Source of the DNA: Trichonephila clavata
Lineage: Eukaryota
Direction: 5' to 3'
Assembly: GCA_019973975.1 (NCBI GenBank)
Contig: BMAO01019611.1
Coordinates: forward strand, 12,564 to 76,563
Length of the DNA stretch: 64,000 nucleotides
In this document: positions 12,201-61,837 of the stretch, piece by piece
Position numbering within the stretch: the stretch's first letter is position 1
Layout: each line of letters starts with the position of its first letter
Notes under the pieces: generated by a model
Seen by the model: only the letters and a program-made list of their open reading frames with translations
Databases searched by the model: none
Told to the model about the DNA's origin: nothing
Program-made: the position numbers and the translations under genes

Positions 12201-13131
12201 AAAAAACAGATTTTCAATACATAAGTACAAAATGTCAGACATAAAAAGCACCAAGCATCACATATCATATTATTGTGATCTAAGGATAAATAGCCTTTGT
12301 TGCTTTATATACCACAAAACCCGTAACTGTAAGCATCACATACATTCAAAATACTGATTATCATTTTATCCCAAGAAAAAATGGGTGAACAATAAAGACT
12401 ACAATATACTAGCATAAACCTAACTATAAGTGTAACAGTAAATATTACATTCCAAATCAAACAGATTATACACTTAAATGCATTAAAAACACAGATAAAG
12501 ACTAGTTAAGCAGCTTTAATCTTAAGTATAAAATGAATTTTTCATTTAATATATAACATCAACAGCAATATCAAAATACAATCACAAATGTGAAAACTCC
12601 TCAATATATAGATTTATATGTACTGAGATATAGATAGTGTTTCAGTATAGTTGGTATTTCAGTATTTCTCTCTATATATATCTGCATTATGTATATATAT
12701 GATACTATATCAGTATCTCATTAAATACTCAACTTAAAATATCCACAAAGTTTTAATTATAATAATTACATATTTATGATACAGTAAATTTATACTAAAC
12801 ATTATAGAAGATAATACATTTTGTTAACTTTCAAAAATAAAAACAGGAAAAAGCTTTTAATTGTAAAAAAATCAACTACTCGTTTAATTTACACATAGTA
12901 ATAAAGTTTACAAAAAAAATTTATACATGGAATTTCTGAAAAAGTATAGGATTGCAAGTTGTTCGAACATGCTGTAATGCTCAACATTGATAAATAATCT
13001 TTAATAATTTTATGTATTTCTTAAAATTGTTACAAGGATCGAATAATTTCTTCTTTGTGCTCGGTTTTACATCAATTCAAATAAAACAGAACTTTTTATA
13101 AGTAATTAATTACATAATTAGGCCAGAAAAC

Positions 13132-13137
13132 TTTATT
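13132..13137 (-). terminator. Candidate MVP polyadenylation signal (AATAAA on the minus strand, about 155 nt downstream of the stop)
   Basis: The plus strand reads tttatt at this position. It is the first canonical hexamer in the 3' flank, but AT-rich DNA makes chance matches likely. Confidence 0.2.
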
Positions 13138-13291
13138 ATTTATATGACAGATACTCAAAAAATTTGTCTGCACTAATAAAAAAGTTCATTTACTAATTAA
13201 TTTTTAATCACAAAATCCAAAAGATAATTTGAATTTCCAGTTAATTAAATATGACTGGAAATTTAAGTTTTAGAATATGAATTATCACACC

Positions 13292-13444
13292 TTAGGAACT
13301 TATTGATGCTCCACTGTCAAGACGCTGCTTTTTTGCAGCTATAGCTCCTCCAAGGAAACCTTGTGCAGTATTAAAGAGATTGATAGGCGTATTACCATCT
13401 GTAATCAAAGCTGATTGAATTCCAAGACCTTGGAGAAGTTTAAC
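13292..13444 (-). CDS. MVP: MVP terminal coding exon ([50 protein letters not shown]), including the TAA stop at 13292-13294
   Basis: It matches the MVP C-terminus [32 protein letters not shown]. It has a ttttag acceptor and gives 50 codons plus the stop. Confidence 0.8.
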
Positions 13445-14166
13445 CTAAAAATGTAACAAAAATTAAATTTTGCAATAAAAACAAATTATATGTGCAAATA
13501 ATACTAAACATATAATTACATAAACCTTTAACTTAACAAACAATCCATCTTTTCACATACTTTTGTTCACATTAAGACTGTCTTTGCTTAATGTTAAAGA
13601 ATAGGAACCACATTTGGAATATTTTTTCAGATATAAAAGAACTGAAACAAAAATATTACATCCTGGCTTCACTACCCTGTAGAAAGCAGCACAGGAAATT
13701 GATTCATTTTTTCAGGTTATGAAATGTTTTGCATTTTTTCTTCAAAACTGTAATGCTAACTTTAAAAATCTCTTTATGTGTTAAAATGGAAAAATAAGTA
13801 TTTATAGAGTATTTTAAAGTTTTACATATAGTTCAGGCTCTTGTAGATTTGGCAAACACAGCCTTAACCTATCACTAGAACAATACATTAGATTATTTAA
13901 TGATGATTTTTGTAATTTTACATTTTGGTCAGATAAGTACAGCATCTTCACTCACTGAGTACCTCACTCACAAAGATTCATTATATTTTATGAAGATTTT
14001 AAGGTTCAGTTTGATATAACATGGACCAATTATTATTTTCTATGAAAAAATAATGAAAAAAGAACTCAAATCCCACAGTTACAAAGTTGATTTTATCACT
14101 ATTGCCTGATTGCAGTGCCAATGAAAAATCCCATTACTGTGTCAATAAAACCCCAATTCAAGTTAG

Positions 14167-14207
<41 letters not shown>

Positions 14208-15391
14208 ATGTATAAAAACCATATAATGAAAAATACCATATTCATAAATTACAAAAACTAAATGTTATTAATACATTTTAATAGCTTTATGCCAATACAT
14301 ATTTATAGTAATTAAATTAACATTACAATTTGTTTTACCTCACTCATATAATTCACACAATAAAGGACAAATGTATTGGAAACCTATTAACTTTTTGAGG
14401 GAAAATTATAAAAGTGTAAACAAAGAACGAAATGCAAACTATAACATTTGAAAAATATTTATCGTACTTATATTGCATAGTAAAATTTCACAGAAAAAAT
14501 TATTAAAATTGGTAAATATCCCAGTACCTCATTAATTTTGAAGCAGATGTTAATTTCTTCAAAATTTTATAACTCATTTTTTAAGTAATTTAAAGAGCAT
14601 GTGTTTAAGTTAAAATATATGATAAGTTTTTATATATAGATCAAAACTTTATAATAAACACAACTTTTTTTAACAGCACAAAAAAAAAAATTATACCATT
14701 TAAATCCACATAAACCTCAATAAACTAATTTAAAAAATGTTAGGAGACTCTTTACTCACTAAGTTTAGGTTTTTAATAACAAATTGTTAAAGAATATGAA
14801 ATTTCATGAAGGATTTGGTTCTATGATCAATAAAATTAAGAAAGAATTATGAGGAAAATATATTATATGCAATGACACAGAGTTAAATGGCATTAAAAAA
14901 ATTTAATCCTTTAAAAGTTATACAAAAAATTATCAATACAGATAATTTATGAATCAATTGAGTCCCCCTTTCTTTCATTTACATAATTATTATGTAAATT
15001 ATCTTTAACACAGTTTTTATAATTAAATTCAATTATGAAACAAGAAAGAAGTGTTTTAAATTTGGCTTATTATTTTCATTTAGTTATTTTGAGAAATACA
15101 ACTTAATGAAATTTAATTTTAGTTTTTCAGAATAAAATACCTTTATATGTGAATGATGAAAAAAAATTAATGCTTAAAACTAATTTAAGATAATTTAAAA
15201 AACATGATTTACAAACAATCTTAATCTGCCAACAAGCAGAGAATTAAAATTCAATGAAGCTGAAGTTAAAATTTTTAAAAAATATTTAGCACTATTAATA
15301 CATTTAATTAAACACAATCATTAATTCTCTCTAAATTAATTTATTCTACTTGATGAGATTAGAAAAATAAATAATCATAATGGAAATGTAC

Positions 15392-15580
15392 TTGAAAATC
15401 TTGTCCAGCACAAGCCACAGCTTGAATTGTATCACTTCCAAGGCTTTCAACCATATTTTTAAATTTCTGAACTTCAATATCAGCAACTTCTTTCAACTTT
15501 TGAACTTCTATATTATTTTGCTCCTTACGGTAATGTAGTTCTTCCTCTCTAGCTTTACGAAGACGCACCAACTCTGTTTC
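15392..15580 (-). CDS. MVP: MVP exon 13 (ETELVRLRKAREEELHYRKEQNNIEVQKLKEVADIEVQKFKNMVESLGSDTIQAVACAGQDFQ)
   Basis: It matches [61 protein letters not shown]. It has a tag acceptor and a GTACAT donor; the 63 codons were verified by hand translation. Confidence 0.8.
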
Positions 15581-17275
15581 CTACAAATAGTAAATTTTTT
15601 TACTCTGCATCCCTTTCAATTAACAGTTTTGAAGCTTTATGTAACACTTCCAATCAGTAGATGATTATTCATATCATGTCCCTTTGTATAAAAACAATGT
15701 AAACCAAAATTTGAAAAAGAAATCAAGTAATGTTTTCAATGCAAATTATTGAAGCAAAAAAAAAAAAAAACACATTATACATAAAAACAACCAGTGTTGC
15801 ACACAGGAATTTTTCAAGAGGGAGGGGTTGAGAATCCGCCATTCTTGTATTGTACTCCAATAAACTGCCAAACATATTCTTTTGATTTTGTTGATTGCCA
15901 GAAAAAGACAGTGAAAAATAAATTTAATAAACAATGAGAATTAATTAATAAAATAAATTATTAATTACAAATAATTAAATTTTACATACTATATGCATAG
16001 AATTATATTCAAGCAAAAGAAAAAAAATCAATGATGATTGAGGGGTCTGCCCAATGCTCTAACCACTATGAAATGAGCTTGAGTATTTCTGAAGGACTTA
16101 CATATTTCATAAAAGATTTATTTAATGATACAATTACAACACACACAATACACTGCATAACTATCGTGAAAAACAGTGGCACTAGGGAGCGGATTTCATA
16201 ATTTTTCTTGGCAAATAAGGGATTAATAGCAGTGCATAATTTTGTTGAAAGTCAAGATATATGGATGATAAACATAGAGGTGGAACACTAATTAGAAGGA
16301 TTTAAAAGCAAGCAAATACCAGAACTCACACAATGGAAAAACTCAAAACTGGACATAAAATGGAAATTGTAGAACCCGGGCGATAAGAATTTCTTTCATA
16401 AGAATTGATGGCCATGTGAAAAATCCCTACTAGCAAAAGTACAACAATCCTTACTATCACTAAAAGGGACTAATGGGAAGTTATAAAACTTGGACAGAGA
16501 AAGAGTACTTGCTTATTACAATAAACAACCTGCATTTTTACAAGCATGAGAAAAAGTCCCACGGCTCAAGTTCTTGCAGGTTAAACAAAACTTGGCACTT
16601 TTTTTACATAATGAGAATATATATATATATATATAGTGTTTAAACAAATGAAGAATTTAAGCTTAGTAAATATTGTTTTATTTTTCATACAATCACATAA
16701 TTTTTAATTGTATTTGTAATTAAAATTATGAATAGAAGATAAAGAATTATGAAAGATAAAGAATTATGCAGTTTCAAAAGCAAGTGACTAGACACTTTAG
16801 AAGATGGCAACAATATAAAATGAAACAAGAATTTTATTTAATAAGGTACCAAAACTTACATGTAAATTATTTTTTTAAAAATATATATCATTTTTCATAA
16901 ATAAAACTATATTCTTTAAAAAATTACTTTAAAAATGAATGAAAAAATTTCTCTAGGTTTTTAAACTGTTTTATAAAAGAAGCAATGTTTGAAAAAATAT
17001 TTAATAGCTATTCCTTGATGAGATCACAGTCATGAAAAGTGACATTAATAAATATAAAAATTAAATCCTAATTTTCAAACCAGCAGTCAAGAGGGGAAAA
17101 AATATTCACGTAATTTAGAAATTAAGAAAAATGAATTGTTAAAAGCAAAATTAACATAGCTATTAAAATACAAACTTATTAAATATTTACCAAACCAATT
17201 TAAACTTAATTATCAATTCATACTTTTAGCTTTATAAAGAAAAATTAATAATTCACAGAACAATAGGCAACATAC

Positions 17276-17519
17276 TGCTTCAATTGTCATAGCCTCTGCC
17301 TTTGATTTAGCTTGCTCTACAGCAGCTTCAGCTTCAATTCTTTTAGCCTCTGCACGACTCAAAGCTTCTGCTTTAGCCTGACCACAATTTTCAATGGACA
17401 TGCTACTGACTTTTAATTCCAACAAGTTTTTCCTTGATTTTTCTGCTTCTACTTCATCAGATATTCGTTGTCGTTCAAGGCGACCACGAGCTTCTTGCTC
17501 CCTTCTCTCTGCTTCATGT
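17276..17519 (-). CDS. MVP: MVP exon 12 ([82 protein letters not shown])
   Basis: It matches the cap-helix domain [65 protein letters not shown]. It has a tag acceptor and a GTATGT donor. Confidence 0.8.
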
Positions 17520-18989
17520 CTACAATGAGGAGATTAAATAAATAATATTTCGTCATAATAAATGTAATTATATGTTTCCAGCCAAACACTTCATGTGTTT
17601 CACTGTTGCCAACTCTTGTTGTTTACAAAAATTTACTTTCAAAAGTATTTATTTGTGTTATGCCTAATATAAGAACTTTGTTTTGAAAAACTTTTTGAAG
17701 AACATTAATACTAAGACATATTTACCAATTACCAAATTTGAAATTGTATCTAGATTTTATAAGTACTAATCAAACATCAGCTTTGAATTCAATCATGAAC
17801 GCAAGATTACATTTATCATGAATTACTCCTCATAAATTTAGCCCATTTGATAGCATGTGTTTAACAATCATCCAAAGACTATGCTACTTTTTGCATATTT
17901 TGAAGTAAAATATAATAAATGCTTTTCATTGTTGGATTTAAAGGTCATAATAAATCTATAAGCATTTTCATTAGATGTTTTTGATGAAGAGAGGTCTCAA
18001 CTGGTTAATTTACAAAAGTTAACTTTATATTGAATTACAGTAAAGTCCATGTAGAAACAAACAACTACAACTTAGAGAGACTAGTCATTTTTATAGAATG
18101 AACATTGAAAATTAGATCAACTAACAAGAGATGATCCTGTTTGGAGGATCTACAATATTATATCAAATTGATAAATATTTGACTAATACAAAGCAAATTC
18201 AAAGAGCCAGAAGTGAATCTCCTTTGTATTTCTTTAATGCATTTCATCTAATGGAGACAGATACACAGTTAAAAATCATAAACAATAAATGTCTTGGAAG
18301 CTGGAACCAAGAAAAGAATGAAAATAAAATTAATGCGTTTTGTAAATTTTTTGGTGTCAGCTAAAAAATGCCTTCAGTATCAAGTGTTAACATGTGCTAT
18401 TAATCCTAAACTTACTTCATCACATATTAGTGCTTAAAAAAATATTCAGTCATAATAACAAGATAATTAAGTTCTGGATATGTTTGTATATTTTCAGACA
18501 CTGTTTTTAAGAACAAGGAGATTAACTCAGCTTAAATTTTCTATCTCAGTTTATAATAGAAAATTTAAATCAATATAATCAAATAATCATTTTAAATAAG
18601 CAATGCATATCAATTCAAGGCTTATTCTTAATTGTAGTCTAATATCCAAAAATGTATAAATAATCCATATAACTATTTTCAATTAAAGTATTCTATTTGA
18701 TTTGACATGTCTAAAATTTCACTAACTATTTTATTGTAGAAAAATATTTTTAAAATTTAAGCAATTGTAAATATAAATTACATTTAAAATTTTCGGCAAT
18801 ATAATAACACAAATATGTTTAATGCAAACTAATTTCATCAAAGAAAAATATTTGAATTGGTCATAATGATTCATAAAACCATACAAGATAAATATAAATG
18901 AAAAAAATTATTATAATTTTCAAAGATGTATTTAAATGATAAATTTTTACAAAAAATAAATGGATGCAGTTTACGAATATCAAATTTAC

Positions 18990-19201: not shown

Positions 19202-21447
19202 CTAAAGGAAGAAATGGTGCATAAAATATACAGAACTACAAAATATTTTTAAAAAGTCTTACATTTTGTAGAAATATTCTGCTTTTTCTCAATGAATTTC
19301 TTTTTCTAGACAATTAAAAAAAATTAAACACTATAATTTTTCCATTAAAAATTTTAAAATCAAAAAACATTTTCTTGCATTGTATTATCCAATTTCATAC
19401 ATATTGATTTAGTTTCAAAAGTTATTAAACTAAATCTAGATATATACAGCTAAATAATGTAAATGTAATAAAATATTTTATATAAATTTTTTGACACAAT
19501 TTTTTAAATCTTTCACAATTTCAAATTCCAATTTCAATTGATTTCTCAGCCATTCAAAATTTATTTGCATGCAAACAATCCAGAATACAAAATAATCACT
19601 TTATAGATTCAGTTGTGAAATTGTGTGTGTGGGGGGGTACCCCTCAAAAAACCCCAAAAATACTTTTAGGGAACAAAGCTTCTATGGTGTGCATTTTTTC
19701 CCTGATAGGAAAAGCATCTCTCTTTGTGTTTAGTCCACCAAAATGCATTATTTTGAAAGCAGACCTTTGGTATTTTTTAAAAAAAAGCAGTTTCTTATCC
19801 TCACTTATTTTTATAATGGCTGGTTTAAGAGTACATGACTAAACACAAGATTCGGGAATGAGAAGAGTTGTAGAGAAATGGATTTTTTGTTGTACTTTGG
19901 ATTCTTCATTCAAATGGAAACATAGTATGCTTAGAAAGCACTTACCCTGTAAAGAACCGAGTTCCAAAGCAACCCAGATTTTTTTCCCAAGGTTATTACT
20001 GATGACAAGTCATTGTGTTGTTCTTATGATTCCAGAACCAAATGGCAATCAAGCCACTGAAAGACATCACTATCATCTCATCGAAAAATAGCTCATTAAG
20101 TGAAGTTGAAATATCAAAAACCATGACATGACAAGTCAGATTTAACACAGAAAAAAATGAAGATGCAAATAAGAGAGTTGTGACAACCATTACAACTGAT
20201 AAGTTTGAAATATAATTAAAAAAACAAACATAAAAATGTATTAAGCCAAAGAAGAGTAATTTAAAAATATTGAAATACAATGTATTGAAACTTTATACAT
20301 ATTGAAGAAAACAATATTTTTCTTTTTAAAAATTCCATTTTAAAAGGAGGATACTTTACATATCAACAACTTTCTATACATAATTATCTAATTTTACTTG
20401 ATCCCAATAACTTTTAAATGAACTTCAGCAAATATTTTTATATCAAAACTATGAAAAAATTCCAATTTATCAAGATAGAGCAGTAAATTTAAAAATTACC
20501 CTACTATTCTAGTCAATTTCTGCCCCTAATTCCTATTTCACATTCAACTACATCAGAATTAATAATTAATACAAAGGTTTTAAATTTTTATTAATACCTA
20601 TTTTATTGTAATTTATCAAATATCTCTAGAAGTCAATGAGAAAGTTTTTTTTTAATGAATTAAACATAATAAACAGAAAAGACAGTTTTGCATAAATTTA
20701 TATAATATATATCTCAATTCATCAGTTTACAATTCTTACTTTCATTAAATAATTTTGCAATTATGCTTAAAGTTAGGTTCTTTTGCAGATCTTTCGAGAC
20801 CTAAGGGTTACTTTTATTTTTCAAACTCATAAAAAAAAAACATCCATAAATAACCACAGAAATAAAAATCTCATTTAAATTAGTGTTATACTGAAAAATT
20901 CACTTTACAGTATTTAAAAATATTTTTTTATGAAATTTTCTTTAAAAAATTTTATTTAAAGACTTTTTATAACAATTAAATAATACCTATATCTTTAAAC
21001 ACACATAAACATTAAAATCGTCAAATAAGATCAGTCCAAAGAACTTTGTTACACATGGCTTAAATTAAAAACTTAACTTGAATTTTGATAATAAATCATT
21101 TCATTCATTTCTTAATCATTCAATTCATTTTTTAATCATTAGATAATAAAATTAGAATTTATAGGAAAATATTAAGCAAATATAAAACGCATACATGGTT
21201 TGTGTTATGCCACAGAACAATAAGTTCAATAAAATGACATTTTACACACTGCTGTTTAACTAAAAGTAATAGCTTAGTATTTTAAAGGCAATAAATTTAA
21301 TATTTTCAAACAGGCAATATCACAGTAAGTAAAGTCAACATAAATTTCAAAGTAACTTTCAATTTATAGAGCCACATAACAAATTTATAAGTCTGCCAAC
21401 ATTAAATTCAAAAATTTAAGAATAATTAGTATCTTTGGAGTACATAC

Positions 21448-21589
21448 TTTATGAAAATCATCAAAATTTGTCCCAGCAACAGAGCCACGAATTCTAGAAG
21501 CTATTGCTTTGCAGAGATCACCAATAAAATCTGGAACGCTGAATAATTTAGCAGCTGCTTCAGGGCTTTTATCACCAATATCAAAGTAC
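21448..21589 (-). CDS. MVP: MVP exon 10 ([47 protein letters not shown])
   Basis: It matches the MVP shoulder-domain segment [37 protein letters not shown]. It has an aag acceptor and a GTATGT donor. Confidence 0.8.
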
Positions 21590-22840
21590 CTTCGGAGATT
21601 AAATAAAGGCATTATTAAAATAAAACAAAGATATCTAAATATCATGTAATCAAAGTCCAATCTGTTATGAACAATTTTTCTTTTCTTTTTTAAACTTTAA
21701 TCCAGGACATTTGACATAATACAGAATGGCTGCCTTTTTAAATAATTAATGTGATTGTAAACCTTATTTTTCCAGTAGTACGTTTAAAAACTTACATATG
21801 CCATCTTAAAAAGCAACATTTAAATGAATGACGATAATATCACTATCATAATAACTAACAATAAAAAATATATATATGACAAGATGATTGAAAGATTGCA
21901 TGTTCTTAACAAGGAAGCATCATGTGATTATAAAAGCAATTTAATAATTTAAGCTTATTTTAAAATTAAATAAGCCAAATTATAAAAATCAATTTCACAA
22001 TATGATTTAAGGTATAATTTATTAGCATTTTTGCATTTCCTTTTCAATATGGTTTTTCAACTTTCCATCTTACTGTCCCATAATTATGAATGTGGAATAT
22101 TTCTTTATGAAATGAAAACAGTTTATTTAATTTTAAGCAATCTTATAAATAAAAATGAAATATTTAATAAAACATCATAATAAAAAAGTAAATTTTAAAT
22201 ACATTCCACTACATTTATTCAAATCTAAGCCGCACTCCCCCCCCCAAATATTAATGATATTGAAGATTAGATGTGGCTTAGAATCGCAAGTGGGAAAATT
22301 CATTGGATTGGGGAAATTGAACATGATACTGAGAGTTAGAACAATTACAGGCTCATGTATGTATTTAAAAAATTTTAATACTGATGAAATTAATTACTCA
22401 CTTCTTATTTGTTCTCATTTTTAATTCCATCAATATTTGATAGCAATATAAACCATTTTACACTAATTTTTATTTTTTCACAAAAACTTTTTAGAATTAC
22501 AGACGTGGCTTTGATTCAAATAAATACGGTAAATATATTTTATAAAAACTATTAATTATCCAAGAACTTTTTTTAAACAACTACTATATTTAAAAACTTT
22601 AATATTTCTGTTAATATAATTTAATAACTTATAATAAAATAACACATCTTAAATAGAAATATTTTTTTTTAAATCCAGCAATGAATAATTTTATGTTTAT
22701 GAAATGAGTTAATAAAGTTATTCTTTTTAAATGTTACATTGAAAATATAAACTTTCTTGTGATTAACGTGTTAATAAATATAAAAGCTCATTATCCTCAC
22801 AAAATTAATGTTAACAAAAAATAAAAAAATAGTTACAAAC

Positions 22841-24200: not shown

Positions 24201-24410
24201 TTACTGGTTTTTGACACCAACTTAGAATTATCTAAATTGTTGTAACAATGTAACTAACTGTTAAAGCAATAACAAAAGTTGGCATCGAAAACCTGTTTTT
24301 ATGCGAAACTAGCAAAACCAAGAGTGCATTGTTACAACAATGCAGACAAATCATGCTCTTTTTTCAATTCCTACTATTAGTTCACTCTCTCCTATGTGTA
24401 TATATATATA

Positions 24411-25836
24411 ACACTTCTGTTTGTAAAAAATGCAACACCATGAAGAATCATCAGAATTAAATGAGCTTTGCAGCAAGTATAAATTATAGGATGTTACATA
24501 AAATAGTAAAGTTTCAGGCCCCCACGCATGCATGGTGTGTGCAGTACCCTCTGAACTGATGCTGAAAGCGTATAAATAGAGGGCTGTAGTGGGGGGATGA
24601 TGTTGAAAATTGTTAATGATTATTTGTTAGCGGAGAACATTTAGTGAGATCTAAGTATGCCTCCATGACAAAATAAGAAGAAATTAAAACAACTTACGGA
24701 GTTTGAATGGGGGAGGATTATCTGCCTTCAAGAAGGAGGATTTTTCTATCGTGCAATAGGGGCTCATGTGAAGCGGAAATTCACAGTGATGCGAGTTTGG
24801 AAGCAGAGGACCAACGAACACTGAACAACTCGAAAAACTGGCAGTGGACGATGGAAGGTGACGTCAGTATGCAACGATCGACACCTGCTCCGCATGGCTG
24901 TGAATGACAGTACAGCTTCCTGCAGGCAGTTGGTAGCACATTTGTCTACTGCTAAAGGTGTATTAATACCTGCTTTGTCAATTCATTGACGTCTGCTGCC
25001 ACAAATTGCATGCAAGGATGCCTTTATACAGGATCCCCCTCACGGCAAACCATCGACGGTTGTGTCTGCAATGGGCTCATGGGCACAGAGACTGGCAAGT
25101 TGATTGGCACCAAGTTGTCTTTTCAGATGAATCACACTTCAATTTGTGTGACCATGATGGCCGTATTTGTGTTAGATTCTATGCCGGTGAATGCTGCCTT
25201 CCAGAGTGCTTAATCAAACAACATAGTGGCCTTACACACAGAGTTATGATTTGGGGTGTGATTTCCTATCATGGACGATCCAATTTGCTACAAATTGAGG
25301 GTAATCTGAATAGCAACAGGTAATATGTGTATATGAAGTGCTACAGCTCGAAGTTGTTCCCTTCCTTTAAGGCATTCCTGGAGCTATCTTTCAGCAGAAT
25401 AATGCATGCCCACATGTTACAAAGACTGTTTGAAGCTTGTGTTCAGCCCAACACATGCAACTTCTTCCTTGGCCTGCTTATTCACTGGATATGTCACCTA
25501 TTGAGCACGTGTGGGATTTGGTTGGTCGGCGTCTCGCTCATGATCCGCGTCTTTCAGCTTCAAAAGACGAACTTTTGCTGCGCATACAAGCAATATGGAA
25601 TTCTCTTCCACAAGCAGACATTCAAAATCTGTTTGACTCCATGCCACACAGTATAGCGGCATTTATTGTAGCGTGTGGTGGCTACACCAAATATTGATTT
25701 TAGACACTTAATATTGTTTTTTTTTGCTTTTAAAATTTCGTAATTTATTTGTACTAGTACAAGTCGTTTATGCATTAAATTTCATTCAATTCTGATGACT
25801 CCTTCATGGTGCTGCCTTTTTTACAAACAGCAGTGT
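24411..25836 (+). mobile_element. Second Tc1-like transposon with about 35-bp TIRs and a fragmented transposase
   Basis: The left TIR ACACTTCTGTTTGTAAAAAATGCAACACCATGAAG matches the reverse complement of the right end (CTTCATGGTGCTGCCTTTTTTACAAACAGCAGTGT). It is inserted in a (TA)n tract. Internal ORFs carry LTANHRRLCLQWA, VVFSDESHF and PWPAYSLDMSPIEHVWDLV. Confidence 0.8.
24707..25697 (+). pseudogene. Degenerate Tc1 transposase split across at least 3 frames
   Basis: The ORFs at 24707-24907, 25006-25323 and 25437-25697 each carry part of the DDE transposase motifs. Frameshifts and stops lie between them. Confidence 0.7.
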
Positions 25837-26530
25837 ATATATATATATATCTTGTTCAAATTTTCAATCATTAATAAAATACTTCTTATTCATCTATTCA
25901 AAGTAGGAATTGGCTTAAAATTTTTCTTTATATTACTTGTTTAAATACATTTTTTGCCTACATAGCCCCTCTCATAAAAGTCATTTGTGTACTCCATTGA
26001 TTACAAGAATGGTCTTTTTGCACAAATATAATTTCAGCTGCTAATAGAGATTTCTCTTAATTTTCCCATACTCAAGCTTTTAAAACAAATTAAGAATTTT
26101 AAAACATACAACAGAATTTAACATGTTGACTGCCCCTTGTTAATTTGTAGTTTCCATTACTACCCAAGACACCATTTAAAAGTTATCAGGAAGCTTGCTT
26201 TTTAACTTGCCACATTTGAGCACCTATGATAAAATTTACAACATATCAATTTAAATCTGAATTTTGTAACAGTTGTAAGTATTAATTTTTTTTACACTGG
26301 AATCCTGAAAAGTACCATGGCAGACAAAATGTTAAAAAATAATATCCACTTTTAGGAATACATTTTAGAAGTTTTAATTTAGTTTATTGAATTATGCATA
26401 ACTTAAGAGTAACACAATTAAATTTTTAAAAAATAGTTCAGTTATGCTTTCTGCAAAATCAATCAAGACATAATACATATTCAATTAATTAAAAAAATAG
26501 TTCCAAATCATTATTTCTAAAAATGCTTAC

Positions 26531-40393: not shown

Positions 40394-43300
40394 ATTTACC
40401 CCCCTTTAATTTTAATCTGGATATTTCAGTCTCTGACGTAGTCCTTCAAGTATGCAGGAGGTTGCCTATGGCGAGCTGTACGCAATGCTGTGTTCTTGTT
40501 CGGTTCAGTCGAATCTTCTAAAGTGGTATCTGAATCTGAGTTTATTGGCTGTAGATCTGGAAGAACTTGAACATTTTCTTCCGTACCCTTGTTGCCTTCA
40601 GAGCTGGTAGTTTCTCCTCTTGGAGCTAAGTGTCTTATAGAAACAGTTGTTTCCCTTCCATTGCCAAGTTTTACATGTGCATAGTCAGGGTTAGCTTCAA
40701 TTAATTCCACTTTATTTGTTAGCACGCACCTGATTTTTCATTAGAACTGGGCCAGGCTTTGTAAGCCAAGTAGGTATGGAACAGCCGTTATGGGATCTTC
40801 GAGGGTGAGAAAACATTCGTTCATGAGGAGAGGCATCTGTTGCTGTACTCAATGAAGAGTGAATTGAATGCAGAGCTGTTTGGATAACACCTTCCCATTG
40901 TTCAGTTTTCATAATATTGGATCTTAAAGCAAGTTGCATAGTTTTCTAGATTGTTCCATTATAACGTTCAACCTGTCCACTTCCTGCTGGATTATAGGGA
41001 GTAGTACGACTTGTAGCAATTCCTTGAGATGTTAAAAATGATTTTAATTCATTAGACATGAAAGATGATCCTCTGTCAGAATGAATAAATGATGGCATTC
41101 CAAAAATAGAAAAAAGTTTCTTCAAATGCAATATTATGGTTTTCGCAGAAATGTCACTACAAGGGATCGCAAACGGAAATCTAGAGAATTCATCAACTAT
41201 TGTTAAAATATAGTGATTTCTTGAAACACTAGGTAAAGGCCCTTTAAAGTCAAGATTCAACCTTTCAAATGGGGAAGTAGCTTTCACAAGAGTTCTAACA
41301 TGTTTAACAAATCTTGGCTTTAGTTCGTTGCATATTAGACAGGAGTTTGTGACTTTCCTTATATCCTCTAAAGAAAAAGGGAGATTTTTGCAACGAACCC
41401 AATGATGCATTCGTGTCACTCCAGGATGACAAAGAGAGTTGTGAAGATTGTTTAAGTCGACTCTGGGAGTTAGAGCTCCAGTTATACGGGATAATGTATC
41501 AGCAATCACGTTTTGCTTTCCAGGACGATAAATAATGTCAAATTTAAAACTAGCAAGTTAAAGTCTCCAACGGATTAACTTTTCATTTTTAATTTTACTA
41601 CCATGTCGCTGATTGAATACAAATGCGACTGCTTGTTGATCAGTGAACACTTCAAAATGCTTTCCCATCAAGAAGTGTCTCGAATGACGAAGTGATTCCA
41701 CAATGGCATATGCTTCTTTTTCTGGAGATGAATGTCTCAATTCAGATGTATTTAAGGTTCTTGAGAAAAAGGCAACAGGACCTCCAGCTTGACTCAAGGT
41801 AGCTCCAATTGCGAAATCAGATGTGTGTGTGTGAATCAGTTTCCACTCGAAATGGTATGTCATCTTCAATTGTTGCCAAGGCAGCATTTGCCACATCATC
41901 TTTCAGTGAATTAAAAGTCAATACAGCATCTCTAGAAGGAGGAAACTGTTTCTTTCCTAGAAGAGGACATATTTTCTGAGAAAACCCCAGGATCCACCAG
42001 CAATAATGGGCAAACATTCCTAAAGCACGTTGCAATGCAGATGAGTCTTTCGGAACAGGCATATCTCTCAAAGGTTTCAGTCGTTCAGGATCTGGTTTAA
42101 TTATACCATCCCGAACAATGTAGCCTAGCAAATGGACAGAATTACTTGAGTAGGTACACTTATCTAAATTTAGGGTCAAATTATACTTCTTAGCTACAGT
42201 CAGGAACTTCTCTAAGTTGTCATCATGTTCTTTTTGATCTTTTCCACACACAGTAACATCATCAATGAATGGATATGTAAGGGTGAGTCCTTCATCCTCA
42301 ATAATTCTGTCAATGACTCTTTGAAAACAAGCTACTCGATTAGTAACCCCAAAAGGAACACGTAAAAACTGATAGAGCTTTCCACAAGCTTCAAAAGCTG
42401 TATAATGTCTCTCGCTATCTTGGATAGGAATTTGAAGGTAGGCACTTTGGAGATAAATTTTGCTAAAAACTTTATTTTTTGAAATTTTCAAAATTACCTC
42501 TTCTATTTTAGGCAAAGGGTAGGTAGGCATCCAGTAATGTGTATTTATTAATTGTTTGAGAGTAGTCAACTACCATTCTGGGCTTATGATTTTCTCCTCT
42601 AATGACAAAGGCTTGAGCCCTCCTGGTGAGTTACTTGGTTCAATGACTCCTTTCTGAAAAAGTTTCTGAACTTCCAATGCCATAAAATTATTGTCTTCAT
42701 CAGTATGACGCCTCGACTTTGTAACCAAAGGTCTACAGTCTGGATTCAAGTTAGAAAATAATGAAACAGGAGGTACTTGTGCTACAGCCAAAGAACAAAT
42801 TGTTAGTGGAGGTCTATTACCATCAAATCCAATTTCTACTCATGAATGTCTGTTTAGAATATCATGGCCAATCAAAACATCACTACAAAGATTTTTCATA
42901 ACTAAAAGTTCCACATTTTGATAAGTGAAGTTTTCGATTTTTAAATTAACTCTACAAACACCCACTGTTTCAGTCACCATGGAGGAGTTTGCCATGGATA
43001 TTTTTCCAAAATATGGTTCAATTTTTTTATTTACATTTCGCCACATGTTTTTCGTTCAGAAAACTAAGAGAAAACTAAGCTCCCTGTATCAATTAATGCA
43101 CTGAGTTGAATGTTATTAACCAATGCCTTAACAATTGATTTCTGGAGACATTGAGAAGATTTTGAAATAGCTGCCAATAAGTTTGAAGAAGTCACCACAT
43201 TTGAAGAATTTCTACTAGGTCTAGATTTGCACACTCGCTGGTAATGTCCCTTTTCCCCACATTTTCTGCGTATAACATCTCTAGCTGGACAATTGGTTCA

Positions 43301-44006
43301 TGAGTGCAAGTCATTTCCACAAAAGAAGCATTTTTGAGATCTTGAGAAGGAGGAAGCCGCTGATGTTTCTAAGGTTTCTTCTGAAAAATCGCCAGTTTTC
43401 ATTGCTGCAGATTGTACTGGGAAAGAACTTCCCATATAAGAAGCTGCATGCACTTCAGCTGATTCAAGGGTTCTAGTTTGCTCAAAAGCTTGATCGAGAG
43501 TCATCGATATATTTCCGAGGAGTCATTGGCGAATGTGAGGACATTTTAATCCTTGTATGAAAGCATCTCTAATATACTCCTTTCGGTATTCCTCAGCCCT
43601 TACATCAGTAAAGTCACAGTCTTTGCTCAATTGGTTTAAAACTTGTAAATATTCACTGACAGTTTCTTCCGCTTGTTGATTTTGCGTCGACAAGCAATGT
43701 CTAGCGAATATAATGTTACGTTTCTTTATAAAAAGTGAATCAAGTATTGCAATAGCTTGAGCATAAGTTGTGCAATCATTAATGAACTGGTAAACATTTG
43801 AGGTTACATAATTACTCAGCAAAGGAAGTTTATTTTCTTCTGTAAGGATTTTTATGCCTCCTAAAAAGTTTTCAAAAGTTTTTTTCCAATGGCACCATTT
43901 TGTTTCCGCATTAGAATACGAGGGATCGATATCGAAATCTTTCAAGTTTCAGCAGTTGTTCCATAATTAAATTTGAAAATGAAACGATTCAAGAAAACTT
44001 CTAAGT

Positions 44007-50980: not shown

Positions 50981-51240
50981 AGTGGCGTGAGTGAGTAAAT
51001 ATTAACATCGCACTATTCAGCTAGTCGAGGGCTTTTGGCGACGGAGCTCGTAAATTTGAACCATGGTCAAGTGACGAGAGTGACCCCTGAGCTTCTAATT
51101 TCCACACCACACCAACGGGAGGGTGTTTGAGCTCTCGACACTATTTATCGTGCATCGCTGCCCTACATGGCGGGTCTTCAGTGGCACTAAAGCTCTAACT
51201 CAGGACACGTCAGTCACACAGTGCCAGTTTATCCATTAGA
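50981..51240 (-). repeat. tRNA-derived SINE, family 1 copy
   Basis: It is homologous to 33506-33785 and abuts the hAT MITE TSD at 51241. Confidence 0.65.
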
Positions 51241-55150: not shown

Positions 55151-55425
55151 GGCGAGTGAGTGAATATTAACGTCGCACTGTTCAGCTATACGAGGACTTT
55201 TGGAGACGGACCTCGTCATTTTGAACCATGGTCAAGTGACGAGGACAACACCTAAGCTGGCACCCCCTCTCCTAACTACCGCACGCCAACAAAGGAAGGA
55301 CGTTTGAGCTCTCTATAGATTTAATGTGCATTGCTCCCCTACATGGTGGATCTTTAGTGGTACTGGGCTCGAACTCATGACATGCCAGCCACGATCCGAT
55401 ACCTGGACCATTAGGCTACCGTGAC
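55151..55425 (-). repeat. tRNA-derived SINE, family 1 copy
   Basis: It is homologous over its full length to 33506-33785, including the tRNA-like head. Confidence 0.7.
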
Positions 55426-55960: not shown

Positions 55961-56794
55961 AAACTAATAATTCTACAGCATATGTAGAAAAGGAAAATCT
56001 TTCACTGTGTCCCTGTTGCCTAATGTATAGTGCGTTGGACTTCAAATCCAAAAGTCGTGGGTTTGAATTTCACCTAGGATAGCCTAATTCCTGAGAATGT
56101 GATTTCTTTTTGACTATACTATTTTATTTGAATAATCAAATTTAATTAATGAATAAATAGTAAACAAAAAAATTGTCCAACACTATACATAGAAAGGAAA
56201 ATGGAAAATTGCAAGGAAAATCGTGTTTTGTCACTTAATATTGTGATTCTGTCATATGTATATAAATATTTATATTAATTGTAAATATTTAATAAAAAGC
56301 AACTAAAAAATTTTTTTTCTTTGTTGACCTGTGTAGGAATTGACTTAAAATTTTTTTTTATATATTACTTGTTTTCAATTTCTTTTAGTGATAAGTGTCG
56401 GAGTCGAGCCTGGCCCCCACTTTTTCTTAGATAATGTTAAATTATTTTTAATTTTCTAAATGATCTTTCAGCTGCTGCAGAAGTGACAGGCATTGTATAG
56501 AATAATTCTTTTTTTTATCAATAATTTTAGTTTTTAAATTTATGTAATACTATTCGTATGTGGTCGAGAGAGTATTTACTGATGTTAAAAGGTAGGAAAA
56601 ACGTAATGCTACGTTACAAAACGTTGTTGGTGAATCCCTGGCTATTTATTTATTAGGAAGGATTGAACCCACACCCACCAAAGAGCTTAGAGCAGGGCCG
56701 GCTCTAGCAATTTTGCCACCCCGGACAGAAATGAAATATATATATATATATATTATATATATAAAGGAGAAAAGCAACTGACTGGCTGACTAAT

Positions 56795-59050
56795 CACGAT
56801 ATATCCGGAACTGTTCCTAATACAGACTTGAAATTTGGTAGACATGTTCCTTTCATAGAGTAGAGATCAGCTAAGAACGGATTTTTTTCGAAATTCTAAC
56901 CGCAAGGGGCGTTACCCGGGTTAAAGGGCGTTATAAATAATTGTTTCCATTTTTAAACTACTCGACGCACAATCTTGAAATTGAGTAAGTAGATTCCTTT
57001 CATAGAGTAGAGATCCGCTACAAAATGAGTTAGGTGAAAATCGACCCCCAAGTGGCGTTGCGGTGGCTTAGATAATTATTTCCGTTTTTAAACTATTAGA
57101 CGCACAGTCTTTAAAATTGATAAATAGATTCCTTTCGTAGAGTAGAGATCAGTTACAAGATGAGTTTTGTGAAAATAGCCCCCCCAAGGGGCGTTGTGGT
57201 GGATTAAGGGGCGTAATAGATAAATATTTCCGTTTTTAAACTGTCATATCTACCTGCTTGAAAATTGGTAGGCATGTTTCTTTCATGGAGCAAATATCCG
57301 CTACAAAATGGGTTTCGTGAAAATCGAACCCAAGTGGCGTTGCGGGGACTTACGGGGCGTTTTAGATAATTATTTCCATTTTTAAACTATTAGACGCACA
57401 GTCTTTAAATTGATAAATAGATTCCTTTTATGAGTAGAGATCAGTTACAAGATGAGTTTTGTGAAAATAGTTCCCAAGCGTTGCGGGATTAAGGCATAAA
57501 GATATATTTTCGTTTTTAAACTGTCATATCTACCTGCTTGAAAATTGGTAGGCATGTTTCTTTCATGGAGAAAATATCCGCTACAAAATGGGTTTCGTGA
57601 AAATCGACCCCCAAGTGGCGTTGCATGGCTTAAGGGGCGTTGATAATTATTTCCATTTTTAAACTACTCGACGTACAATCTTGAAATTTGGTAAGCAGAT
57701 TCTTTTCATAGAGTAGAGATCCGCTACAAAATGAGTTTGGAGAAAATCGAACCCAAGTGGCGTTGTGAGGGCTTAGGGCGGCTTTTTAGATAATCATTTC
57801 CATTTTTAAACTATTCAACGCACATTCTTTAAATTTGATAAGTCGATTCCTTTCATAGATTAGAGATCAGCTACAAAATGGGTTTTGTAAAAATAGTCCC
57901 CCCCCCAATTGGTTTTTTCGCGGGATGAAGGGGTTAATAATATTTCCGTTTTTAAACTACTGGACGTACCTGCTTGAAAATTGGTAGGCATGTTTTTTTC
58001 ATGGAGTAAAATCCGCTACAAAATGGGTTTGGGGAAAATTAACCCCAAGGGATGTTGAGGGGGTTAAAAGGCGTTATAAATTCCGATTTTTAAACTATTA
58101 GACGTACAATCTTGGAATTATGTAAGCGGATTCCTCTTATAGGGTAGAGATCCGCTATAAAAGGGTTTCGTTGAAATTGACTCCCAAGTGGCGCTACGGG
58201 GCTCAAGGAGCATTATAGATAGTTGTTTTCATTTTTAAACTACTGGAAGTACAGTCTTGAAATAGATAAGCAGAATCGTTTCATGGAATAAAGATGCGCT
58301 ATATAATGTGTTTTGTGAAAATCGACCACAGGTGACGTTGCGGGGCTCAGGGAGCGTCATAAATAATTATTCCCATTTTTAACTATGAGACGTACAGTCT
58401 TGAAATTTTGTAAGCAGATTCCTTTCGTATTGTAGAGAACCGCTACAAAATGGGTTTCACGAAAATCAAACCAAAAGTTTCATTTCGGGAAATTAAGGGG
58501 CGTAATAGATAAATATTTCCGTTTTTAAACTGTTATATTTTCCCGCTTGAAAATTGGTAGGCACGTTTCTTCCTTGGAACAGAGTTTTTCTAACAAAAAG
58601 TAAAACGAAAATAGACCTAAGGATGGTTGCGAAGGGTCAAGGGGAGTTATAGAAAAAAAAAATTACTGTTTTTGAATAGTTATACCCCCGTACTTGAAAT
58701 TTGTTAAGCATGTTTCTTTTGTTGAATAGGGAATTACTAAGAATGTATTTTACGGAAATCAACTCCTGGGGGAGCAGGGGGTTACTGGGGGGCGTATTGA
58801 AAAAAATCTCCTTTTTTGAACCAACAAGGACTATAATAATGGAATTTGGTTTGCATTTTCATTTTGTTAAATTGAAATCTGCTAAGAACAGTTATATTGG
58901 AGAACGACTCAACGAATTACAGAGGTTATGGATAGTAAAAACTTCGTTTTTGCTGCATTAGATTTAGACTTTAAATTTGTCTTGCATGTTTATTTTACGG
59001 AGTAGAGATCCACCAAAAATTGGTTTTGCGGAAATATACTTTCTTATAGG
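56795..59050. repeat. Tandem array of about 15 monomers of roughly 145 bp, with monomer subtypes alternating as a ~290-bp higher-order unit and decaying toward the 3' end
   Basis: The spacing of TTCC(A/G)TTTTTAAACT... units is 136-147 bp. Blocks such as 57081-57370 and 57373-57650 are near-identical dimers. No ORF is conserved across the units. Confidence 0.85.
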
Positions 59051-59446
59051 GTTACGAAAGTGCAAGCTTCATTCTATACTTCAATTTACAGTTATAATTA
59101 TATTTTTCAACATAATCGAATTCTTAATGCTAGGGGTTAGATATCAAAAATTTATACATATATATATTTCTATATAAGCAGTATATATTTATAAAATATC
59201 GTGAAATACCCAGCGAAGCGGGTGAGTAACGGCTAGTGTATATATATATATATATATATATAGCCAATGCAGCTAAGCCATTTAATCTATCTTTAAAATT
59301 TGTGAACTGTAAGAAATTTTTTATTAATTTAAATTTTGAGAAACTATCTACACTTGCCAAACTTATTAGCAAAGAAAGTAAAATAAATGCAATAGCAAGA
59401 TTTGGAGCAAATTCTAAAACAGAAATAAATTTTAAAACTTCAACTG

Positions 59447-59486
<40 letters not shown>

Positions 59487-59577
59487 CTGCTAAAGCTGAA
59501 ACTGACATTATCTCATCTGCTCAGTCAAGCGCGTTTACATCCAATGATTCTCCGTCGGTCAACATCATTTCTAGTTT

Positions 59578-60813
59578 TTAATTAAGTAAAGTTTTAAGGG
59601 TATCTCTTAAATCATATATATTGTACAAAAATTGAAAACAATTACTGTCAGTACTCATTAAATTAAATCTGCATTCCAAAGCATTAACTGTTTCGTTCAA
59701 TGTAAAAAAAAATAAAACTATGTTGAATTTTAATTTAGGATATTCCATCGGATCATCTTGTGCTTCATAATTAAAAATTACATTTTTCCATCGAACTCTG
59801 TGGCGTGGCTGCGTCACCTCAAAGTTAGTAGAGATATCAATCTCGACGGCCAGTTCTTTTGCATCACAGTGCATTTTATCAAAAGTCACATCCTTAAAAA
59901 AATCTTTACAATTGCTTGAGAGTTCCATAGTAGATGGTAGATCGTAATATTTTGTTTGCAATAGTTTGCTTATTGGATTTTAATGCAATTAAAGATTTTT
60001 ATACCAAATAATGATGGCCATAGGAACTTGAATTGTTAAGTAGAATTTAATAATCCAGAGGCCTCATCTCTTATAGAGTTGTCAATTTCAGCATTATTAT
60101 CAAAACTAAGCATCATAAAAACCTCCCAATTGATAACTTGAGGGTTTAATAGTCTCTATTCAGCTTTCCCAGCTATTTACACTAAGTGGCTTTAAAGTTT
60201 TATGCCCTTTATACATTTTAATAATATAACCCAATGCAAAGTTGATGGGGGGAAATATTTTTTGAACTAGATTAAAAAAAGTACAGGCTTCTAAGGATGC
60301 TTCTGCCATGTCATTAACGACCAAATTTAAAGAGAGGCTACTACATGGCACATAGACTGTTCACGGATTTAACGTTCTTATTTTAAATTGAGCCCCTGAT
60401 TTCTCGCCTTTCATATTCACTCTGTTATTGTAGGTCTGCCCCCGCATATTTAGCAAATTTAGCCCCTAATTTTTTTTAAAGTTTCTCAACTATTAAATTT
60501 TAAATTTCTCTTCCAGTTAATCTTTCAACTGGAAGGAAACAAAAAAAAAACTCGCATCAGTTTTAACGATAATTTCGTTAAAATTAGATTTCTCAATACA
60601 TGTATATCTTACTATAAATGTCATTTGTTCGATCTTGCTGGCATCAGGGGCGCAATCTAAAATTATCGAATGATATTTAGCTTGTTTAATTATATGAACA
60701 ATGTATAATTTAATATTCTCATATAAAAGAGAAATTATCTCGTTCTGAATATTTTTCCGTAGATAATGTACTTTAACTTCTTCCTTAAACTTCTTCCATA
60801 TTTTCCATAACAA
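59578..60813 (-). pseudogene. Degenerate hAT transposase (ZMYM1-like) in three frame-shifted pieces
   Basis: The minus ORFs are 60517-60813 (KYHSIILDCAPDASKIEQMTFIVRY), 60160-60351 (LNLVVNDMAEASLEACTFFNLVQKI...TLKPLS) and 59578-59961 (the hAT C-terminal region with FKDVTFD...LECRFNLMS...FQFL). The N-terminal part is missing. Confidence 0.65.
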
Positions 60814-61837
60814 AAAAAAGTTTTAAAATTTTGTCCAAATGCTGCCCCTAAAATTTGCCGCCCCGGACATGGGTCCGGTTTGTATAAGGCCCTAGAGCCT
60901 CCCCTGCTTAGAGCTATAAAGTAGTCCACTAGAAAATGATAAAAAAAAAATATGCATGAACAAGAAAATGCAGAACATTATTTTTTTTTTAAAAAAAATC
61001 CACCTTTTCAAAAGAACAGAGGTGAGGGGAAAATAAAATCCATCAGTCTCTAGCAGATACGAGTAGATTACGAAATATTCAAACAAGAAACTAGCTTATT
61101 ATGAATCATATTGTTATTGGGAAAAAAAATGTAACCAGGAAGGAACTGCTTCCTGTGTAGGTTTTTTAAGATGTAATAATAAGTATGGTAAAATTATCCA
61201 CGAAAATTACTTTTGCTTAACTTCCTTGGTTCCCTTGTACCACATGTGATTCAAAAGTTTCATAATTTTTTGTGAAGGCTGAACAACAAAAACAAATTTG
61301 GGACCGGTTGTATCGCAAGAAATTTAAAGTGAAATACCTCATATAATTTCCTCATTTAGTCAACAGATAGCAGTACCTGTCCATGATAGGTTTTTCTAGT
61401 ATATAGCGTCTCTGAATCAAAACAAGATATGTGCAAGGCGTCGTAGGAAGTATTTTTTTTTTCTTATTTATATACACACACACAAATATATTAAACTATT
61501 TTTAAAATATGATTTTTTTTTGTATATGTACTTTTTACTAGTTAACAGCAAAAAAAAAGAAATTTTTAGTAAAATAATTAAAGCAATGATTTGTGAAATT
61601 TGTTTGTATCACTTATGATGATACAATGGGACCCAATCACTTTGAACACTTTTTAAGACAATTTTGTTTTAATTTTTAGTTATATTTTTTTGGGGGGAGA
61701 GAAAATTGATAGAAGTATTTCTTGAGTTAAAATCTTTAGTTGAGGAGTTTGTTTTCCATTTTTACTTGATAATCTTTAATTTAATAAGTATTTTTTAATG
61801 AAATATTTGAAACCACACAGATGAAATTTTAGAGAGG

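Follow-up and report, generated by a model that had tools for sequence, protein, structure and literature searches.

Does a tandem array that lies between the ends of a transposon owe its origin and its spread to that transposon? The question is raised by a locus in a 64-kb stretch of Trichonephila clavata DNA (hereafter the window), in which a single insertion of about 4.2 kb (positions 56693-60906) encloses an array of nucleosome-sized repeats, and which a preliminary description had presented as a hAT-type transposon seeding a satellite. We examined the window alongside seven loci (L001-L007; 123 kb) from a different species, T. clavipes.

The hAT insertion and its transposase pseudogene

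The left terminal inverted repeat (TIR), CAGGGCCGGCTCTAG (56693-56707, plus strand), which is the element's 3' end relative to the transposase, pairs at 13 of 15 bp with the right TIR (60892-60906, minus strand), whose reverse complement is CAGGGGAGGCTCTAG. The 64 kb contain no match besides these two (0.05 expected), which begin with the YARNG-type sequence and fall in the length range (about 10-25 bp) by which hAT ends are recognized, such that the CAGGG-type inverted repeats proposed earlier hold on alignment. On either side, CTTAGAG is repeated perfectly (56686-56692 and 60907-60913), giving a target-site duplication (TSD) of 7 bp, compared with the 8 bp taken as the hAT criterion; an eighth base requires counting twice the G at 60906, which is shared with the TIR. 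Shuffled windows each contained 0-1 cases of a 7-bp direct repeat flanking an inverted repeat of at least 13/15. The subterminal direct motifs of the preliminary description were likewise recovered, as AATTTTGCCACCCCGGACA (56709-56727) and AAATTTGCCGCCCCGGACA (60851-60869) on the same strand, with a chance expectation of 0.01. The first belongs to a 3'-terminal block (56693-56739, plus strand) that is conserved in the T. clavipes copies, and the second to a 5' subterminal region (60787-60891, minus strand) with no counterpart in the retrieved T. clavipes loci, where we also looked for, and did not find, a 5' inverted repeat of the hAT copies.

The ZMYM1-like transposase remnants noted earlier on the minus strand proved to be a pseudogene (59262-60786), identified by protein and nucleotide homology, which matches 'zinc finger MYM-type protein 1' of T. 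clavipes (52% amino acid identity, E = 2.6e-107). It has 22 in-frame stops and lacks about 120-150 N-terminal and about 30 C-terminal residues. At the nucleotide level it is 78% identical to L003 and L004 (over 59267-60517) and 70% identical to L001, L002 and L006. A poly(A)35 tract on the coding strand (59450-59484, minus strand; TRF) is an expansion of a lysine-rich transposase stretch, at which the T. clavipes sequence is AAATAAAAAAGAAAGT.

We judged the domain criterion for hAT transposases, an RNase-H-like core with a C-terminal hAT dimerisation domain (PF05699), through homologues: the pseudogene itself scores 27.3 bits for DUF4371, under the cut-off of 32.1, and its own C-terminal piece has no PF05699 match, while the proteins matched at E = 2.6e-107 carry PF14291 and PF27073 (and in part PF05699) and the 78% identical T. 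clavipes homologue P0020 matches PF05699 with 34.3 bits (cut-off 21.4). With its CAGGG termini, its TSD of 7(-8) bp and its pseudogene for a ZMYM1-like/DUF4371 transposase, the insertion belongs to the hAT superfamily. It resembles the DUF4371/'ZMYM1-like' hATs and their internally deleted derivatives in its CAGGG-type ends, its 7-8-bp duplication and its subterminal motifs; the DUF4371 region, RNase-H-like core and C-terminal dimerisation region of such hATs are seen here through the homologues, and the deletions at both gene ends are those of internally deleted derivatives. No part of the element is functional today.

The tandem array

Between the hAT ends lies the tandem array of ~145-bp monomers that the preliminary description had pointed out, with about 16 units of ~144 bp covering 2.3 kb and ending near 59099. 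TRF reports a period of 144 with 11.9 copies (56827-58531), and TRF, nhmmer and an identity matrix delimit twelve well-preserved monomers (m1-m12; 56827-58545, plus strand) with pairwise identities of 57-90%. Four degenerate monomers (m13-m16; 58546-59099, plus strand), 37-61% identical to the others, were located by profile matches. Three of these are significant (E = 1e-11, 1e-10 and 4e-6), and m15 (58830-58968), which reaches only E = 0.23, was placed mainly from its spacing.

The further proposal that the true unit is a ~290-bp higher-order repeat did not survive closer analysis. A 280-bp period comprises only 2.7 copies in TRF (85%) and is confined to 56997-57747 (plus strand), where TRF, the identity matrix and lag analysis agree on a local dimer duplication, m3-m4 having been copied as m5-m6 (identities of 90% for m4/m6 and 81% for m3/m5, the background being 57-80%). 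The excess of lag-2 over lag-1 identity is restricted to m2-m6, and across m6-m12 lag 2 (66.6%) is not above lag 1 (67.9%). The apparent higher-order repeat is a single local duplication and no array-wide pattern.

Neither a second occurrence of the monomer outside the array nor a second copy of the element was found in the 64-kb window. The monomer array is absent from the 123 kb of T. clavipes loci, and the monomer was not found in protein, metagenome or prokaryote-genome collections, including exact-pattern scans of metagenome_contigs and genome_contigs (0 matches in each); an exact-pattern scan of metagenome_contigs for the hAT end also returned 0. An Rfam scan of the element detected nothing in the array, and a protein search for spurious gene models on further arrays, with the open segments of its minus strand as queries, produced 8000 word candidates, none with E ≤ 0.01. 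GGGGC-type motifs are shared by the monomers and the subterminal regions; their enrichment in the array was discarded as evidence, as it merely reflects monomer repetition.

A foreign block and its resemblance to a Helitron

The T. clavipes copies allow the same end of the element to be compared across species. The 47 bp at 56693-56739 are 87-89% identical to L003 7908-7954 and L004 7928-7973, and CAGGGCCGGCTCTAG is the perfect end of both copies, with one mismatch in L007 and two in L001 and L006; it is on these T. clavipes copies that the presence of dispersed elements with the same ends, a further hAT hallmark, was judged. Measured to the element tip from a C-terminal coding position that the copies share, the distance is 290 bp in L003, 309 bp in L004, about 490 bp in L006, about 505 bp in L007 and, once a nested LTR element is removed, about 460 bp in L001. 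In the window the same interval spans 2.57-2.63 kb, compared with 290-510 bp in the five relatives. None of the seven loci contains a 144-bp repeat array, and the roughly 2.5 kb of non-hAT sequence in the 3' internal region of the window's element has a counterpart in 0 of the 5 relatives. Since five relatives, two of them with an identical TIR, have no array at this place, we regard the array as foreign to this hAT and as an acquisition, and the earlier view of it as a feature of the hAT itself is not supported.

Two simple repeats bracket the foreign block. At its left junction, TRF and inspection of the sequence identify an (AT)14 microsatellite (56736-56763), whose phase breaks at 56755/56756, a possible Helitron 5' junction. 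No TC, the dinucleotide with which a Helitron begins after an A, occurs at 56739-56767, and the resemblance of this junction to the 5' end of the T. clavipes Helitron, TCTATACATATAAA, is at the chance level (z about 0); a Helitron 5' terminus may have been lost or may be hidden inside the (AT)n tract. A short leader follows (56764-56826, plus strand), which has no homology to hAT or to the Helitron 5' region and ends in a partial monomer (about 56801-56826), delimited with nhmmer --max, by which 56801-56886 matches positions 915-1005 of the Helitron profile described below (E = 0.13). The right junction is a (TA)12 microsatellite (59239-59262), defined by TRF and by comparison with L001, L003 and L004, which begins within the transposase codons ...LAAL-A-I. 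We also considered the block at 56764-59238 as a Tc1/mariner-type MITE in a TA site and rejected this reading because the alignment of its inner inverted repeats scores no higher than the mean of shuffled sequences.

Between the array and (TA)12 lies a Helitron-like 3' tail (59100-59236, plus strand), recognized by a hairpin, ACCCAGC-GAA-GCGGGT (59208-59223), that is followed by a 9-nt spacer, CTAG (59233-59236) and then T. This is the arrangement that defines Helitron 3' ends, namely CTRR after a hairpin with T next, although the predicted energy of the hairpin is not unusual relative to shuffles (z = -0.58).

A possible relative of this DNA is present in T. clavipes, where L004 689-1781 and L007 11007-9990 are copies of a canonical non-autonomous Helitron. 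By the criteria used (TC at the 5' end, CTRR at the 3' end with a GC-rich hairpin some 11 nt from it, insertion between A and T, and no TSD), this element is a Helitron: both copies start with TCTATACATATAA directly after an A, and the 3' end reads ACCCGT-GCGAAGA-ACGGGT-ATACCAGCTAG followed by T, with hairpin arms ACCCGT/ACGGGT, a terminal CTAG (CTAA in the other copy) before the T, and no TSD.

We searched the window with a profile built from these two copies. With default filters, nhmmer found nothing. With filters off, the eight best matches in the 64-kb window all fell within the array, all on the plus strand and all to Helitron positions ~844-1005 (E = 0.003-0.13), the best match outside the array having E = 0.56. 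The similarity is weak (3-8.4 bits per monomer), and the eight matches are not independent because the monomers are paralogues. In the reverse direction, the best match of a monomer profile in the 123 kb of loci was the L007 Helitron (E = 0.0044), such that the monomer corresponds, with weak similarity, to a ~150-bp internal Helitron segment. The Helitron's self-similarity around this monomer-like unit is marginal (z = 2.1).

Over its final 330 bp, the L004 Helitron is collinear with 58860-59110 of the window (z = 4.57, 0/300 shuffles; controls z = -0.4 to 1.9). The pattern GCGAAG-N0-3-CGGGT-N6-14-CTAR, which was formulated after both sequences had been inspected, has a single match in the window, precisely in the interval that separates the array from (TA)12 and with CTAG followed by T, and elsewhere occurs only at the 3' ends of the two T. 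clavipes Helitron copies. The Helitron's 3' 40-mer is not the top Smith-Waterman match in the window, and about 800 bp of its 5' region have no counterpart there. From this weak but concordant similarity we infer a Helitron origin of the block: the monomer appears to be homologous to part of the interior of the T. clavipes Helitron, and the block is more likely Helitron cargo.

A proposed history and its implications

We consider it fairly probable that a central tandem-repeat block derived from a Helitron became nested or captured within an old, dead, non-autonomous spider hAT copy. Foreign DNA amounting to about 2.5 kb (roughly 56750-59236) would thereby have taken the place of the final ~30 codons and of the 3' untranslated region, ~215 bp long, that the relatives have, and would consist of sixteen ~144-bp repeats and a 3' tail from a non-autonomous Helitron with 'central tandem repeats'. 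The block would have entered at a TA-rich site, either through the insertion of a Helitron at a (TA)n tract, with deletions afterwards, or as a Helitron fragment copied as filler during gap repair following hAT excision. Because a clean Helitron insertion would spare these ~215 bp, this history has to include either a further event or a mechanism of capture. The array would then have grown and decayed in place, via unequal exchange or slippage, with the m3-m4 to m5-m6 duplication as the most recent visible event.

Some features of the block would suit filler DNA of unknown or unrelated origin, for example a genomic tandem repeat, brought in by template switching at (TA)n in gap repair, with the Helitron resemblance due to chance or to an older shared repeat: the block replaces about 215 bp of hAT instead of merely interrupting it, is bounded by (AT)14 and (TA)12 and has no Helitron 5' end, and the element's 5' internal deletion is typical of gap-repair derivatives. 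We nonetheless think this unlikely, as the significant Helitron-profile matches are confined to the array and to a single strand, the tail runs collinear with the 3' part of the Helitron and the block ends in hairpin-CTAG-T; a captured Helitron fragment, moreover, would itself be a variant of the nested or captured Helitron that we favour. An origin within the hAT family, in which the array was born from the element's own 3' subterminal sequence and spread by hAT transposition so that copies would be potential satellite seeds, is quite doubtful. The array does lie wholly within an intact TIR/TSD pair, arrays internal to transposable elements are a documented route to satellites (PMC9659126), and monomers and subterminal regions have GGGGC-type motifs in common, but the five related hAT copies, among them the two whose TIR is identical, end in a short 3' region without an array, the monomer is unlike any hAT sequence and resembles a Helitron, and the window holds no further monomer or element copy. 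That the entire feature is an assembly or chance artefact, with no real transposon, has a negligible probability and is refuted by the TIR/TSD statistics, which place the TIR, and the TIR joined with the TSD, far beyond chance expectation and the subterminal motif above it, together with the transposase homology and the independent homologous elements with the same ends in T. clavipes.

The nested or captured Helitron block has parallels among non-autonomous Helitrons/Helentrons with central tandem repeats, namely Drosophila DINE-1/DINE-TR1 (Dias et al. 2015, as presented in PMC9659126) and oyster Cg_HINE (PMC7492417). These elements share with it short arrays of satellite-like monomers, each of roughly 150 bp, and a 3' hairpin with a CTRR end, and carry their arrays between Helitron flanks. 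Array length varies between their copies, and the monomer likewise is present about 1-2 times in the T. clavipes Helitron and 16 times here. Unlike these elements, the block has no recognisable 5' Helitron end and sits inside another transposon, and its homology to the one Helitron relative available is weak; the ends of that relative are canonical (TC after A at the 5' end, CTAG before T at the 3' end), not of the Helentron type. Satellite DNAs derived from transposable elements (PMC9659126, PMC12628747) offer a second likeness in their nucleosome-sized tandem units tied to a mobile element, whereas the long, homogenised arrays at many loci or in high copy number that mark satellite DNA were not seen here: the sequences searched contain one 2.3-kb array, whose units are 57-90% identical and decaying.

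It is improbable that the array was acquired before the hAT's last transposition and that the composite then became multi-copy in the host genome. Were this so, hAT cut-and-paste would provide tandem repeats of Helitron origin with another vehicle, independent of the first, and a relay across superfamilies could seed satellite arrays. Satellite-like repeats borne by Helitrons or Helentrons are already well documented from Drosophila and bivalves; a case from a spider would carry this pattern into the arachnids, but one decayed copy contributes little. More generally, the position of a tandem array inside transposon ends is no proof that the transposon created it or spreads it, and the structure described here is most likely an ordinary nest of mobile-element DNA rather than a demonstrated birthplace of a satellite.

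The hAT insertion and its surroundings

The segment at 56693-60906 behaves as a single insertion. Its terminal inverted repeats (TIRs), CAGGGCCGGCTCTAG against the reverse complement of the right end, CAGGGGAGGCTCTAG, match at 13 of 15 positions, and a degenerate search recovered these two sites only in the 64 kb, with 0.05 expected. A perfect target-site duplication (TSD), CTTAGAG, lies in both flanks, such that seven of the 7-8 bp given in the preliminary description stand, and an eighth is obtained only when one G is counted in the TIR too. In a scan of shuffled windows, a 7-bp direct repeat around an inverted repeat of at least 13/15 arose in 0-1 cases each. The subterminal motif AATTTTGCCRCCCCGGACA occurs once by each end on the same strand, and both the hAT-type termini and the subterminal direct motifs described earlier are thus borne out.

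On the minus strand, 59262-60786 translates mostly in one frame, interrupted by 22 stops. The translation matches T. clavipes models named 'zinc finger MYM-type protein 1' (E 2.6e-107, 52% identity), proteins that bear the Pfam DUF4371 and FAM200-ZBED5 RNase-like domains and, in some cases, Dimer_Tnp_hAT, in agreement with the proposed ZMYM1-like transposase remnants; the assignment of the element to hAT was correct. By tblastn, the remnant lacks ~120-150 N-terminal residues, and its C-terminal dimerisation region (59262-59441) ends ~30 codons short; in the decayed pieces Pfam found DUF4371 alone, at 27.3 bits, below the cut-off. This hAT copy is dead and non-autonomous. A 35-base mononucleotide run within the pseudogene (59450-59484) represents a homopolymer expansion, since the corresponding stretch in the T. 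clavipes relatives is short and Lys-rich (AAA/AAG).

A relic of another hAT C-terminal dimerisation domain, unrelated to the element, lies at 56314-56505 (minus strand), 190 bp to its left (PF05699, E 9.6e-4; tblastn matches to many hAT proteins). The element inserted beside or within this older hAT remnant. An Rfam tRNA match at 56009-56081 (plus strand; 39.2 bits, above the gathering score), where ARAGORN called no tRNA, may be a tRNA pseudogene or the head of a tRNA-derived SINE.

Elsewhere in the window, a decayed hAT transposase relic (4111-8193, plus strand) is split by a Tc1/mariner copy at 4879-5946 with a 355-aa open reading frame, and a scan for TSDs with TIRs yielded a Tc1/mariner-like copy at ~24403-25845 (ORFs 25006-25656), with inverted ends ACACTTCTGTTTGT and flanking TA-rich duplications. 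LTR-retrotransposon gag/pol frames, including reverse transcriptase and integrase, occupy 40426-43945 (minus strand). Two minus-strand intervals, 21385-21660 and 30385-30690, contain exons of a gene for major vault protein (Vault repeat and shoulder domains), and their best database matches are Logan/ENA fragments of at most 86% identity. A dispersed repeat of ~270 bp has three copies in the window (55154-55421, 33508-33774 and 50989-51217; 76-81% identity) and is 71% identical to 14122-14388 of the T. clavipes locus L004, which together suggest a SINE or MITE family common to both species.

The internal tandem array and the related T. clavipes copies

A tandem array does lie inside the element, as first observed. 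TRF reports a period of 144 bp, with 11.9 copies and 70% matches, at 56827-58531, and a monomer profile delineates 12 good units (m1-m12) at 56827-58545, preceded by a partial monomer and followed to ~59099 by four degenerate inner-edge units (m13-m16), 2.3 kb in all. Three of these four are significant in the profile search, and the other (58830-58968), with an E of only 0.23, is placed chiefly by spacing. Identity among units is 57-90%, falling to 37-61% when m13-m16 are compared with the others. The proposed ~290-bp higher-order repeat found no support across the array: duplication of m3-m4 into m5-m6 (identities of 81% and 90%; TRF period 280, 2.7 copies) is one local event, and past m6 identity between next-but-one monomers is not above that between neighbours.

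To compare the element with its relatives, we used seven T. clavipes loci (123 kb), reached through protein matches. L003 and L004 match 59267-60517 at 78% identity and end in an identical 15-bp TIR, with the terminal 47 bp at 87-89%, and L001, L006 and L007 hold remoter hAT copies whose ends carry 1-2 mismatches. The L001 relative (~11822-18880) is itself split by an LTR retrotransposon with LTRs of ~320 bp. From a shared C-terminal coding point to the element tip, the distance is 290 bp in L003, 309 bp in L004, ~460 bp in L001 (with the nested LTR element taken out), ~490 bp in L006 and ~505 bp in L007, against 2.57-2.63 kb in the window, and the 144-bp array is absent from the 123 kb. It is therefore doubtful that the array is the hAT's own component, as the satellite-seed interpretation had assumed. 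Since hAT homology stops after ...GCATTGGCTAT, at the onset of a (TA)12 tract, and resumes at ATTTCATTTCTGTCCGGGG, immediately beyond (AT)14, ~215 bp of hAT sequence, namely the final ~30 codons together with the 3' UTR, has been replaced by ~2.5 kb of foreign DNA between TA microsatellites.

Transposon-borne arrays are well documented as sources of satellites (reviewed in PMC9659126 and PMC12628747), the oyster Helentron Cg_HINE elements being one example of such arrays (PMC7492417). The element described here would be a candidate satellite seed only on account of the array itself, which is single, 2.3 kb long and decaying. A profile search found no other monomer copies in the window, the monomer was not found in metagenome and prokaryote-genome collections, and the array's minus-strand frames had no match in a protein-space search.

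A probable Helitron relative of the array

Searched against the T. clavipes loci, the monomer profile produced a single weak match (L007 10210-10259, E 0.0044) and two collinear sub-threshold matches in L004, all within a repeat of ~1.05-1.1 kb common to both loci at 79% identity (L004 689-1781, plus strand; L007 11007-9990, minus strand; assembly GCA_019973935.1). This repeat begins with TCTATACATATAA immediately following an A, ends in ACCCGT-GCGAAGA-ACGGGT-ATACCAGCTAG (or CTAA) followed by a T, and has no target duplication; it is a canonical non-autonomous Helitron family, in which a unit akin to the 144-bp monomer is present ~1-2 times. When a profile of the two Helitron copies was run over the whole window with heuristic filters off, the eight best matches all fell in the array, on the plus strand (E 0.003-0.13), and all mapped to Helitron positions ~844-1005; the best match outside the array had an E of 0.56. 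Furthermore, the 3'-terminal 330 bp of the L004 Helitron are collinear with 58860-59110, the last degenerate monomers and their tail (z 4.57; score equalled in 0 of 300 shuffles), with z 2.39 for the L007 copy and -0.4 to 1.9 for controls from four regions and the reverse strand. The block closes with a stretch (59208-59236) that reads ACCCAGC-GAA-GCGGGT, nine spacer nucleotides and CTAG; a T and the (TA)12 tract come next. The 3' motif that the block has in common with the T. clavipes ends is present a single time in the window and, in the loci, only at those two ends.

Several observations temper this link. Per-monomer scores against the Helitron profile are low, the monomers are paralogues of each other, and nhmmer with default filters found no match between Helitron and window. 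The common 3' motif was framed post hoc; in a plain Smith-Waterman search with the 3' 40-mer the block end was not the top-ranked site, and the hairpin at 59208-59223 is not unusually stable. No Helitron 5' end is demonstrable for the block, which also has no equivalent of the ~800 bp lying 5' of the monomer-like unit in the T. clavipes Helitron. We therefore favour, with moderate confidence, the reading that this central tandem-repeat block within the dead hAT derives from a Helitron.

A further weak point of the Helitron reading is that simple insertion does not account for the loss of ~215 bp of hAT sequence. A Helitron-derived block could have arrived by nested insertion in a (TA)n tract, with deletions afterwards, or it could be filler DNA copied during gap repair following hAT excision; in addition, the hAT copy shows a 5' internal deletion such as gap repair produces. 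In all, this is most likely a commonplace nesting of mobile elements that belong to two known kinds.
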